A stretch of DNA of 63,927 nucleotides, the filler included, from Folioceros fuciformis (Eukaryota), in the NCBI GenBank assembly GCA_049999805.1. It is 8 parts of 8 records of this genome, joined end to end, with 100 filler letters (N's around TTAATTAATTAA, not from the genome) between each part and the next. Parts side by side here need not be neighbours in the genome. Positions count along the whole stretch, not along the records: positions 41,410 to 50,122 come from JBNGIO010004109.1; 7 more parts are not named here. One strand, written 5' to 3'. Position numbers and translations under genes: made by a program. This document shows positions 43,004-46,000 of this stretch, piece after piece; positions within the stretch are counted from its first letter, which is position 1, and each line of letters starts with the position of its first letter. The notes beneath the pieces were generated by a model. The model saw only the letters and a list, made by a program, of their open reading frames with translations, searched no databases and was not told where the DNA came from.

Positions 43004-46000
43004 ATGCCAGCCACGGTTGCTTGGAGCAGTGCAATTGAGTCACGTAAGGGGCACGAGGAGCCCTCTTGGGGGCACTTGCCGTGGTCTGGACAAAGTGGTG
43101 GTGCCACTCGCTTGACTTCCAGGACCCAGAGCTTGAAGCAGAATAAATGCACCTTTGCTAGAAAGCAGGAACGAAGCCTGAGAGCATGTCTGCCTGGGCC
43201 TGGAGAAGGATCGCCGAGCGAGGATCGTAGCCAGGAGCGTTTGTGGCGACGCTTCTTCCAGAACCCCGGCCTTTGGTGGGATAATAGGCAGAAGAAGAAG
43301 AGCAGCCGGTCGCCTGATTTCCGGAATAAGGAGTCAGACGAGGTCCTCTGGCTGAACAACTTTTGCAAGCCAGCTTGGGTGGATGCCCAGCTTGCTTGTC
43401 TGGATATGGAGAAGGGATGTAATGGGGGCGTACAGGATGATGACCACCCTGGGCACCAAGGGGGGGTGACCACCGGGGAGACTGTGAGCAGGCTGTGCGG
43501 GCAGGGCCGTGTCGCTGAGGCTGTTGAGGCTTTGGGGGTTTTGGTGGAGTCGGACAGTGGCGTTTCCACATCTCTCGTTTATGCCGTCCTCAGGGAATGT
43601 GTGGCGAAGAAGGATCTTGTTATGGGTCGCCGGGTCCATGCTTTGATAGTGAGAGAAGGTTATCAGTCCGACTCGTTCCTGTGCAACCACATCCTTCGGA
43701 TGTATGCTTCTCATGGCAGGTTGCAAGACGCGATGGCTGTGTTCACCGAAGTTGCCAGACCAGATGCCTTCATGTGGTCTTCCATCATTTCTGCACACGT
43801 GAAGCAGGGGAAAGATAAGGAGGCCCTGGAGCTGTATCATCGGATGCGAATGTCGGGTGTGAAGCCGGATGGCCACGTCTTCGTGGCAGCCCTTCAGGCT
43901 TGCGCAAGGGGAGGAGACCTGGAGACTGGGCAGGAGCTGCATGCTCACGTGTTGGCTGCTGGCGTCGAGCCTGATCTGTTCGTCTGCAGTTCCTTGGTGG
44001 ATATGTTCGCGAAGTGTGGCAGTTTGGAAGATGCCCACAGAGTGTTTGACGGACTCCCGCACAAGAATGTGGTGACATGGACTTCTCTGATTGCAGGCTA
44101 CTCCCAGCAGGGCAAGGGGCAGGAAGCCCTTCGGCTCTACAGGGCTATGCAAGTGGAGGGCGTCGCTGTACCCAATTCTGTGACGTTTGTGTGTCTCCTG
44201 CAGGCATGTGCAAGCGTGGGCGCCCCAGCTTTAGAGACGGGGGAACAGCTTCACGCACAGATAAGGGAACGAGGACATGAAGCTGATGCCTTTGTAGCCA
44301 ACAGTTTGGTGAACATGTATGCAAAGTGCGGCAGTTTGGGAAATGCTCAAAAAGTGTTTGATGGCCTCGCTCGAAAAGATGTGGCGACGTGGAATGTCAT
44401 GGTGGCCGGATATTCGCAGCAGGGGATGGGGAAGGAAGCGCTTCGAGTGTATGACGCCATGCGACAAGACGTCACGGTTGCCCCGGACTCCGTGACTTTT
44501 GTGTGTCTCCTGCAGGCATGTGCAGGTGTGGGCACCACAGCCCTGGAGGTAGGGAAGCAGCTTCATGTCCAGATCAGAGATGGTGGGCTTGAGACTGATG
44601 TGTTCGTTGCCAACAGTTTGGTGAACATGTACGCCAAGTGTGGCAGCTTGGCCAAAGCTCGGGGAGTGTTTGATGGACTCGGTCAAAAGGATGTGGTAAC
44701 GTGGAATGCCATGATAGCAGGGTATTCTCAGCAGGTCATGGGACATGAAGCCCTTCGTCTCTACAGTGCCATGCAAGAAGAAGGCGTGGTTGCACCCGAT
44801 TCCGTGACTTTCGTGTGTGTCCTGCAAGCATGTGCAAGTGTGGGCATTCCAGCTCTGGAAATGGGGAAGCAACTTCATGCTCGGATCAGAGAACAGGGAA
44901 ATCAGGAGGATATTCTCGTGGCAAATAGCTTGGTGAACATGTACGCAAAGTGCGGCAGCTTGGAAGATGCTCAGAGAGTGTTCGACGGACTCGGTCAGAA
45001 AGGTGTGGCAACCTGGAATGCCATGATGGCAGCATATTCCCAGCAGGGTAGGGGACAGGAAGCCCTTCGTCTTTACAGTGACATGCAAGTAGAAGGCATG
45101 GTCACACTAGATTCTGTGTCGTTTGTTTGCCTCCTGCAGGCATGTGCAGGTCTGGGCAGCCCGGCCCTGGAGATGGGAAAACAGCTACATGCGCAGGTCA
45201 AAGAAGGAGGATATCATGGTGACGTTTTTGTTGCCAATAGTTTGGTAAACATGTATGCAAAGTGTGGCAGCTTGGAAGATGCCCAGAGAGTGTTTGATGG
45301 ACTGGGTCGAAAGGATGTAGTGACATGGACTGCCATGATGGCAGGGTATTCACAGCAGGGCATGGGGCAGGAAACTCTTCGTCTTTACAGTGCCATGCAA
45401 GAGGAAGGTATATCTGTACCTGATTCCGTGACATTCCTTTGCCTACTGAAGGCATGTGCAGGATTGGGCACCTCAGCTTTGGAGAAGGGGAGGTATCTTC
45501 ATGCCCAGATCAGAGAACGGGGATATCACGCCGACGCGTTTGTAGCCAACAGTTTGGTGAACATGTATGCAAAGTGTGGCAGCTTGCGAGATGCTGCTAG
45601 AGTGTTTGATGGACTCGATCATAAAGATGTGGCAACATGGACTGCAATGATCGCAGGATACTCCCAGCAGGGCATGGGGCAGGAAGCCCTTCGTGTGTAC
45701 CGCGATATGCAAGAGGAAGGTGTGGCCGTGCCTGATTCGGTGACATTCGCATGCCTCCTCCAGGCGTGTGCAAATGTGGCAGCTTTGCATCTGGGAAGGC
45801 AGCTGCATGCACAGATCAAAGGACGAGGGCTTGACGCTGACGCGCTTGTGGCCAAAGGCTTGATCAATATGTATGGGAAGTCTGGGAGCATGGCTGATGC
45901 ACAGCAGGTGTTCGATGCATTGCTCGAAAGAGATGTCGTTGCCTGGAATGCCCTGATCACAGGGTACACATGTCAAGGAGACAGTGAAGCAGTCTTCGAC

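Follow-up and report, generated by a model that had tools for sequence, protein, structure and literature searches.

We found a complete PDF domain, the type of domain known from organellar OSB proteins, joined in frame to the N-terminal side of a PLS-type PPR array in Folioceros fuciformis (assembly GCA_049999805.1). The window, that is, the whole stretch of DNA that was analyzed, comprised 63,927 nucleotides, and the protein of its PDF-PPR frame was labelled P0001. Positions 43004-46726 (+) probably form a nuclear gene for a PLS-class PPR protein of the E subgroup, in which the PDF domain would tether the protein to single-stranded DNA (ssDNA) of the organelle. The gene, its parts, and two other PPR frames of the window were as follows.

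42959..46726, + strand: stop-free frame of 1255 codons with the stop included at 46726, running straight into the PPR array
43004..46726, + strand: proposed CDS for the PDF-PPR-E protein, 1240 codons plus stop when counted from the first in-frame ATG
43004-43006, + strand: first in-frame ATG, 76 codons upstream of the motif
43004..43231, + strand: segment ahead of the PDF domain, a possible organelle presequence of 76 residues
43232..43405, + strand: PDF domain, residues 77-134 of 1240, enclosing 43241-43393
43406..43408, + strand: second in-frame ATG directly 3' of the PDF domain; translation from this alternative start would yield a protein lacking the PDF
43424..43459, + strand: central part of the linker that joins the PDF domain to the first PPR helix (model residues 70-81, pLDDT <50)
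43472..46279, + strand: PLS-type PPR array (Pfam PPR_2, PPR, PPR_1, PPR_3, and PPR_long), helical hairpins from model residue 86
43994..45779, + strand: internal tandem array inside the PPR array, 5.7 copies of a 312-bp (104-codon) unit with 76% matches (Tandem Repeats Finder)
46280..46462, + strand: E motif (PF20431), P0001 residues 1108-1168
46463..46723, + strand: C-terminal tail of 87 residues without a family match in Pfam
250-3420, − strand: PPR ORF without a PDF domain, with a similar first helix
3785-6229, + strand: PPR ORF without a PDF domain, with a similar first helix

Positions 43241-43393 (+) translated exactly to the 51 residues quoted in the earlier note, in a stop-free frame that continued into the PLS-type PPR array and the E motif. 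To identify the motif, we used a PDF profile of 67 segments drawn only from 31 proteins that also bear an SSB-type OB fold. The frame matched this OSB-only profile with 74.3 bits (E 3.7e-22, profile positions 2-58 of 60), while the runner-up among the 1329 six-frame ORFs of the window scored 5.1 bits, which bore out the earlier assignment of an OSB-type PDF motif. No second PDF copy was detected among these ORFs, and the two other PPR frames lacked the motif, as had been noted. A phmmer search of 1.84 billion representatives with a 57-residue query returned 599 matches at E<=1e-3, of which 128 were at E<=1e-10; these relatives, together with the 74.3 versus 5.1 bits, ruled out a chance resemblance. 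Among the best 150 of the 599 matches, the SSB family (PF00436) was present in 28 of 130 at E<=1e-5 and in 3 of 20 at E<=1e-3, and some PDF-bearing relatives among the matches listed were labelled OSB1, OSB2, or OSB3 by NCBI. The frame contained the Pro-Asp-Phe signature and the flanking W/WWD.R/LW/P.W pattern over ~50 residues. Thirteen alignment columns are >=90% conserved among the 59 OSB-linked and also among the 64 PPR-linked segments; the frame kept every one of them, and they are mostly aromatic or basic residues (W, F, R, K). Pfam holds no model for the PDF motif, and the motif alone (P0002) accordingly hit 0 families. At the level of sequence, 43232..43405 is confirmed as a genuine full-length OSB-type PDF domain of ~58 residues.

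The PDF motif is described as the ssDNA-binding part of OSB proteins (PMC6963530, PMC6451138, PMC4166229), as the earlier note had stated, and for AtOSB1 it is reported to be sufficient for ssDNA binding (PMC6963530). P0001 is not an OSB protein proper because it has no OB fold: neither PF00436 nor any other OB-fold family was found in it by Pfam, and membership of the OSB family was thus rejected. OSB proteins carry their PDF motif at the C-terminus, whereas here it is N-terminal (77-134 of 1240) and followed by PPR repeats. What the PDF-PPR-E protein shares with OSB proteins is the ~50–58-residue domain with its common conserved columns and a probable organelle location, the latter inferred from the class of the protein.

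The predicted structure is consistent with a self-contained unit. The AlphaFold model of the PDF domain alone had a pLDDT of 91 and showed a compact arrangement of helix, short strands, and helix. In the context of the PPR array, linker residues 70–81 had pLDDT <50 and were flanked by parts of ~90 or higher. In the model, the PDF is therefore a separate mini-domain on a flexible linker of ~20 residues that leads to the first PPR helix. When the model was compared with the PDB, the best Foldseek match had an E of 5.1, and no chain among 48,161 reached Z>=5 with VIA-align (highest Z 4.2). A profile search among PDB sequences yielded only two chance-level rows (E 0.51 and 0.67). The predicted domain thus had no clear relative in the PDB, from which novelty of the fold does not follow.

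Downstream of the linker, the frame's PPR repeats scored 419.7 bits for PF13041 and 341 bits for PF01535. The E motif at the end of the array reached 51.9 bits against a cut-off of 27.3, covering profile positions 1–61 of 63, so the N-terminal position of the motif relative to an in-frame PLS-PPR array was as the earlier note had it. No DYW (PF14432) or E+ family was found in the protein by Pfam, and tblastn with three DYW domains gave no significant match in or after the gene (46463-48500), so that no concealed DYW domain came to light further downstream or in another reading frame. The description of the protein as editing-factor-like therefore holds for its PLS/E class only; because the DYW deaminase is absent, "editing factor" is a class label. 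The long PLS array, the E motif, and the lack of DYW are shared with PLS-class E-subgroup PPRs, which are editing specificity factors without a deaminase of their own. What sets the protein apart is that a folded PDF domain follows the presequence and precedes the first PPR, an arrangement absent from descriptions of PPR architecture in the searchable literature. Nucleic-acid-binding domains have been described as additions to other PPR proteins, namely in maize PPR4 with its N-terminal RRM and in the PPR-SMR proteins (PMC9459714). In these, as here, an accessory nucleic-acid-related domain is joined to a PPR array, but they are P-class proteins with RNA-related (RRM) or SMR domains, whereas ours is a PLS-class protein with an ssDNA-type domain.

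The PDF-PPR combination was not confined to this locus. At least 42 further database proteins had the same architecture, from ferns, lycophytes, Sphagnum, and one liverwort. In the profile-match survey, PPR families were present in 37 of the 120 listed of 323 matches, including lycophyte, fern, and Sphagnum proteins; nine of the 37 also carried DYW. In the phmmer survey of architecture, PPR families occurred in 7 of the best 150 of 599 representative matches. The sources among the matches listed were Diphasiastrum complanatum (29 clusters), Selaginella (e.g. XP_024517303), three Sphagnum species (e.g. Sphagnum compactum CAM6033764), Adiantum (e.g. KAI5076972), Pteridium (two transcripts), and Calypogeia (one Calypogeia fissa protein). 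These database proteins were unnamed or labelled only as PPR. A word-indexed search with residues 85–150 of P0001 among proteins of 690–2197 residues returned no match, which reflects the sensitivity limit of that tool, since the other searches found such proteins.

All 40 proteins compared (39 checked relatives and the window's protein) carried 1–3 PDF domains after the presequence and ahead of the PPR array, and one of them, P0176, had one additional internal copy. In the relatives, 23–148 residues preceded the first PDF. The two Pteridium members (P0098 and P0167) came from a transcriptome set, in which a single ORF on a single assembled transcript encodes the fusion; further members were P0259, P0260, and P0256. 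Homology to the database proteins was collinear from the PDF through the linker and the PPR array to the E motif, with 36% identity to both P0007 (1147 residues) and P0167 (1152 residues). For the N-terminal part, the nearest relative was P0259 (53% identity over residues 80–330), which has its PDF at 61–118 and bears a KP-type DYW region. Compared to these proteins, the one described here contains a single PDF, whereas many of them contain two or three, and it lacks the DYW found in 9 of the 37 listed members. Family members have a presequence, 1–3 PDF domains, a PLS array, and an E motif, with or without a DYW domain.

In a tree of the motifs, the PPR-linked PDFs clustered with 3 label changes, a number as low as which was seen in 0 of 500 shuffles, and a single origin of the PPR-linked PDFs was not rejected by the sequence data (p-AU 0.694). 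PPR-linked PDFs form groups of their own in this tree, apart from those of OSB proteins, and are a separate lineage whose ligand may have changed. The two PDF-less PPR ORFs of the window belong to the same subfamily as the PDF-PPR gene (52% and 48% identity) and were no closer to it than its PDF-bearing relatives. Their contiguous frames had no presequence; therefore, they may represent truncated copies, or further exons may lie upstream. Unless they are dead copies, they suggest that the PDF is dispensable for at least some relatives. The earlier note had regarded the motif as a module acquired by this gene. Acquisition at the locus was not supported, because a single origin is not rejected, the architecture recurs in the other proteins counted above, including the closest relative P0259, and the PDF-less ORFs are no closer. 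The PDF-PPR architecture is old and, among the named members listed, resides in non-seed land plants.

A PPR array binds its RNA with the N-terminal end of the array toward the RNA's 5' side. Because the PDF domain would stand at that end, at the N-terminus of the mature protein and separated from the array by the linker, it may hold the PPR protein on ssDNA of the organelle nucleoid. Candidate sites would be transcription bubbles, R-loops, and replication or recombination intermediates, and the PPR array would meet its RNA target during the synthesis of that RNA. The proposal presumes that the domain still does what is reported for OSB proteins, namely bind single-stranded nucleic acid irrespective of its sequence and favor ssDNA. 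AtOSB1 and AtOSB2 reportedly favor ssDNA over both dsDNA and RNA (PMC4166229), so tethering to nucleoids or R-loops, or sequence-specific targeting of ssDNA, is plausible; the reported preference comes from whole angiosperm OSB proteins, via reviews (PMC4166229). If the protein takes part in editing, it would need a partner supplied in trans because it lacks the DYW deaminase.

A much wider proposal, which we regard as unlikely, is that the PDF-PPR proteins are an unrecognized two-headed class of organellar proteins in non-seed plants, with the PDF on nucleoid ssDNA and the PLS array reading sequence. Such proteins might carry out editing or RNA processing on the nascent transcript at the gene, and the bryophyte, lycophyte, and fern family might fill the helper role that MORF proteins fill in seed plants. 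In its boldest form, the displaced DNA strand itself would be the substrate of the PPR-DYW members.

The PDF might also act on RNA, a tentative reading that we consider possible rather than probable. The domain would then be a sequence-independent clamp on the single-stranded RNA immediately 5' of the stretch covered by the PPRs, raising affinity or keeping the target unfolded, and it would replace the MORF-type helpers that non-seed plants lack. The short flexible linker of the model, attached to the PPR end facing the RNA 5' side, is consistent with such a clamp, as is the more basic character of PPR-linked PDFs (mean net charge +1.7, versus +0.5 for OSB-linked PDFs). MORF genes are described as confined to seed plants (PMC13386178), and the named PDF-PPR proteins among the matches listed were all from non-seed plants; however, this complementary distribution rests on the listed matches (120 of 323 and 150 of 599). 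RNA-binding domains have likewise been added to other PPRs, e.g. the RRM of maize PPR4 (PMC9459714), but the reported preference of AtOSB1 and AtOSB2 is for ssDNA over RNA (PMC4166229). The 13 most conserved columns are identical in the OSB and PPR contexts, which argues for an unchanged ligand.

It is quite improbable that the PDF stretch lies outside a working protein, either because translation starts at 43406 and leaves the motif in the 5' leader, or because the gene is a decaying PDF-PPR copy. The in-frame ATG at 43406 directly follows the motif and has a good context, with G at −3 and +4, and an 8-codon upstream ORF begins at 42960. However, the 40 residues after the ATG at 43406 have a net charge of −3 and by sequence are unlike a presequence. 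The 76 residues ahead of the motif have a net charge of +4 and 17 S/T, and this composition weakly hints at a presequence; the segment is unconserved relative to the relatives. A Met lies upstream of the PDFs in all 39 relatives checked. The gene could be a decaying copy because it has no DYW, an unmatched 87-residue tail, and an internally amplified repeat in its PPR array (the 312-bp unit), and PPR families in such plants are reported to grow by retroposition (PMC13386178). Copia fragments and assembly gaps also lie close by. On the other hand, the frame is open over 1255 codons, all 13 conserved columns are intact, and the PDF score of 74 bits falls within the range of 57–82 bits for members from annotated genes.

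A contig of run X2 (887 letters), which has the same organism label, covered 42612-43496 with no difference and no joint. This stretch is thus contiguous in a second data set; X2 is only guessed to be RNA, and transcription or splicing is not implied. In the relatives' runs X8 and X11, matches were confined to short pieces of the PPR array.

That the PDF is instead a protein–protein module, for oligomerization or docking to OSB, nucleoid, or editosome proteins, is doubtful: AtOSB2 and AtOSB3 are reported to run as tetramers (PMC6451138), PDF motifs frequently occurred in 2–13 copies per protein among the phmmer matches, and an E-type protein would require a deaminase partner, but reviews assign ssDNA binding and not oligomerization to the motif (PMC6451138, PMC4166229), and its conserved columns are largely W, F, R, and K, as expected for base stacking.

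We could not find a prior description of a PDF-PPR family, with an ssDNA-type domain on a PLS-PPR array, nor any report linking the PDF motif to PPR proteins, in the searchable literature. According to its description, a 2026 census of OSB proteins retained only proteins with both PDF and an OB fold (PMC13393729), and PDF-PPR proteins would therefore be filtered out. Selaginella is given without OSB in the table of PMC4166229, and the Selaginella PPR protein P0140 carries a PDF motif. The finding alters how the PDF motif is surveyed.

PLS-class PPRs are usually drawn with a presequence, a PPR array, an E motif, and DYW, and with nothing folded ahead of the array. Here, a folded domain known from organellar ssDNA-binding proteins is conserved ahead of the array in PPRs of a liverwort, mosses, lycophytes, and ferns. 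If the PDF binds RNA, it would be a built-in helper in lineages without MORF proteins, which would be relevant to the design of synthetic PPR editors from such plants. If it binds ssDNA, RNA editing or processing would be physically linked to the organelle nucleoid.

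The 51 residues that the earlier note assigned to a PDF motif, the ~50-residue Pro-Asp-Phe motif of plant organellar OSB proteins, were an exact translation of positions 43241–43393 on the plus strand. As claimed there, the motif shared one uninterrupted ORF with the PPR array (42959..46726, stop-free, 1255 codons). In Pfam searches, the frame was rich in PPR repeats (PF13041, 419.7 bits; PF01535, 341 bits) and held an E motif at residues 1108–1168 (51.9 bits, cut-off 27.3), while the E+ and DYW families were not matched in the frame, nor any family in the PDF stretch itself. 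No DYW (cytidine-deaminase) domain was found downstream of the gene. The PPR array contained 5.7 tandem copies of a 312-bp unit (one P-L-S triplet; 43994–45779, plus strand; 76% matches) and, judged from its sequence, is expanded through internal duplication.

The first in-frame ATG was at 43004, 76 codons upstream of the motif, and the second at 43406, immediately 3′ of it. Counted from 43004, the PDF occupied residues 77–134. Because the 76 residues before the domain were basic and S/T-rich (net charge +4, S/T 17/76), whereas the 40 residues following the second ATG were acidic (net charge −3), translation from the upstream ATG is weakly favoured. An abrupt switch from AT-rich to GC-rich sequence occurred at ~42600, ~400 bp ahead of the first ATG; its AT-rich side (41400–42600) was very AT-rich and held two N runs. 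No run recorded as RNA contained the PDF stretch; a contig from run X2 (the kind of run is a guess) spanned 42612–43496 with zero differences and zero joints, and says nothing on transcription.

A phmmer search with 57 residues (43232–43402) against 1.84 billion cluster representatives matched 599 proteins at E ≤ 1e-3; of these, 128 reached E ≤ 1e-10 and 17 reached E ≤ 1e-30. Among the best 150 of the 599, many had 2–13 matched stretches close to their C-termini, and Pfam placed the SSB OB-fold PF00436 in 28 of 130 (E ≤ 1e-5) and 3 of 20 (E ≤ 1e-3); PPR families were found in seven, a kinesin motor in one, and DUF3574 in one. In a later profile search, many relatives carried the NCBI names OSB1, OSB2 or OSB3. 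An OSB-only profile was built from 67 PDF segments, solely from the 31 SSB-bearing proteins; the segments were initially chosen by likeness to the query, and the OSB label came from the independent OB-fold match and the source names. When this profile was run on all 1329 six-frame ORFs of the window of at least 30 residues, the frame 42959..46726 scored 74.3 bits (E 3.7e-22, positions 2–58 of 60) and the runner-up 5.1 bits. The window's copy also kept all 13 columns whose conservation was ≥90% among OSB-linked (n = 59) as well as PPR-linked (n = 64) segments. By these comparisons, 43241–43393 lies in a genuine PDF domain that is in frame with, and N-terminal to, a PLS-E PPR array.

AlphaFold2 (68-row alignment) modelled 43217–43420 as a compact unit (mean pLDDT 91.0, pTM 0.76) with a helix at residues 2–15, short strands, and a helix at residues 54–67. 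In a longer model of 338 residues (mean pLDDT 91.2, from a 22-row alignment), the PDF unit came first, then residues 70–81 at pLDDT <50, with regular helical hairpins beginning at residue 86. The models thus depict the PDF as a domain that folds on its own and is held by a tether that is probably flexible; its removal with the transit peptide, an objection raised in the earlier note, is therefore unlikely. No usable relative was found for the PDF model by Foldseek (best E 5.1) or VIA-align (48,161 chains, best Z 4.2), or by a sequence profile search of the PDB (best E 0.51).

The other main features of the window were as follows.
250–3420 (minus) and 3785–6229 (plus): PLS-E PPR ORFs, head-to-head, 365 bp apart, both stopping at the E motif or shortly beyond it.
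16691–17704 (plus): exon of a TPR_12-rich protein, an ordinary neighbour.
31985–32851, 37390–38163 and 40331–41299 (minus): Ty1/copia-type polyprotein pieces (RVT_2, 256 bits; retroviral SH3-like domain).
53103–53900 (plus): DUF617 protein, an ordinary neighbour (242 bits).

The Ty1/copia-type pieces lay upstream of the PDF-PPR gene and were broken by N runs. The minus-strand PPR ORF carried a degenerate DYW-like remnant at ~642–307 (26% identity over 125 residues, E 2e-8). Both neighbouring PPR ORFs had a similar first helix and, by the OSB-only profile, lacked the PDF, as the earlier note had observed. Their first-PPR identities to the window's PDF-PPR gene were 52% and 48%, compared with 54% and 45% for the PDF-bearing database proteins P0259 and P0256. 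Their contiguous frames had no presequence, with the first Met 8 residues before the helix in one and inside the array in the other. Given this shared identity range and the missing presequences, the neighbours may be truncated or have upstream exons, which is as likely as the window's gene having gained the module.

That note's reading of the PDF as a module acquired at this locus was not borne out, as the PDF-PPR fusion recurs as a family. The seven PPR-carrying representatives (P0007, P0058, P0098, P0107, P0120, P0140, P0143) came from Adiantum capillus-veneris (two), a Pteridium aquilinum transcript, Sphagnum compactum, Selaginella moellendorffii RefSeq, and Logan contigs (two); P0120 additionally had E, E+ and DYW families. 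When longer proteins were searched with a profile made from eight PPR-linked PDFs, there were 323 matches. By precomputed Pfam, 37 of the best 120 of these carried PPR families: Diphasiastrum complanatum (29 clusters), three Sphagnum species, Selaginella, Adiantum, two Pteridium transcripts, and one Logan contig. DYW was also present in nine of the 37. All 39 PDF-PPR proteins checked, and the window's, had one to three full PDF matches of 57–82 bits each to the OSB-only profile, located N-terminally after 3–148 residues; P0176 had an extra internal copy. By BLASTP, the whole frame was 36% identical to P0007 and P0167 (Pteridium transcript) over 1147 and 1152 residues, and the alignments ran collinearly from the last PDF, across the linker, first PPR helix and array, as far as the E motif. 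When the window protein's residues 80–330 were used as query, P0259 (53% identity, 95% coverage), a 950-residue Logan protein with PPR, E and DYW families, came out as the closest relative of that segment; this search also retrieved P0260 from the liverwort Calypogeia fissa. In P0259, P0260 and the cluster member P0256, each PDF was preceded by a Met-initiated presequence. Across these alignments, PDF-PPR is a conserved, widespread architecture and not a local event.

At the start of its DYW region, P0259 had Lys-Pro where the PG type has Pro-Gly, and its last three residues were not D-Y-W. PMC11845758 describes such proteins as KP type and connects them with U-to-C editing, so PDF occurs on both PG-type and KP-type proteins. 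A short PDF-PPR-DYW protein was found as P0120, P0241 and P0242 (Sphagnum), P0260 (Calypogeia) and P0114 (a JGI fragment), with a very similar stretch directly after the PDF; it appears conserved between moss and liverwort, and its Sphagnum and Calypogeia members appear to be one gene. The Selaginella moellendorffii protein P0140 carried the motif on a PPR protein, and Selaginella is listed without OSB in a table of PMC4166229. P0018 (EukProt, labelled Biecheleria cincta; 286 residues, four PDF stretches) came from a dinoflagellate transcriptome set and may reflect plant contamination or a real transfer. PDF motifs within a 1526-residue kinesin model (P0045, Coptis chinensis) and a 1063-residue model named after a ROP interactor (P0028, Striga hermonthica) may mark merged gene models.

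A quick maximum-likelihood tree of 123 PDF segments (64 PPR-linked, 59 OSB-linked; 58 columns), with many forks unresolved, required three PPR/OSB label changes, a number as low in 0 of 500 shuffles. The window's PDF fell in a group (SH-aLRT 95) of ten PPR-linked segments from P0007, P0167, P0143, P0098 and P0107, whose named sources are ferns. A tree constrained to one PPR-linked clade beat the free search by 11.86 log-likelihood units. Since the AU test did not reject such a clade (p-AU 0.694), one ancient capture of the PDF by PPR proteins is compatible with these data, though not proven.

OSB proteins are described as carrying one or more copies of the 50-residue PDF motif C-terminal to their OB-like fold; in AtOSB1 the motif sufficed for ssDNA binding, an ability that the OB fold has apparently lost (PMC6963530, PMC6451138). 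AtOSB1 and AtOSB2 preferred ssDNA over dsDNA or RNA (PMC4166229). We propose that the PDF domain would retain single-strand nucleic-acid binding and, given this reported preference, would tether the protein to nucleoid single-stranded DNA, so that the PPR array could meet nascent RNA. The main alternative is that the PDF clamps RNA on the 5′ side of the PPR footprint. No named PDF-PPR protein from seed plants was among the matches listed (best 120 of 323, best 150 of 599), and MORF proteins, helpers of RNA editing, are described as restricted to seed plants (PMC13386178); the clamp fits this complementary distribution, which does not test it. Less weight is given to the gene at this locus being a non-translated or decaying copy. 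A protein-protein role for the PDF in PPR proteins is likewise a smaller alternative to the ssDNA tether.

No paper in the searchable literature linked the PDF motif or OSB to PPR proteins; subscription papers and supplements were beyond reach, and an earlier mention there is possible. A 2026 kingdom-wide editing-factor study did not mention OSB, PDF or single-stranded. A 2026 OSB census is described as retaining only proteins with both PDF and OB fold (PMC13393729), so PDF-PPR proteins would drop out. The PDF-PPR architecture is readily testable, and the short Sphagnum/Calypogeia PDF-PPR-DYW protein would be a good experimental candidate.
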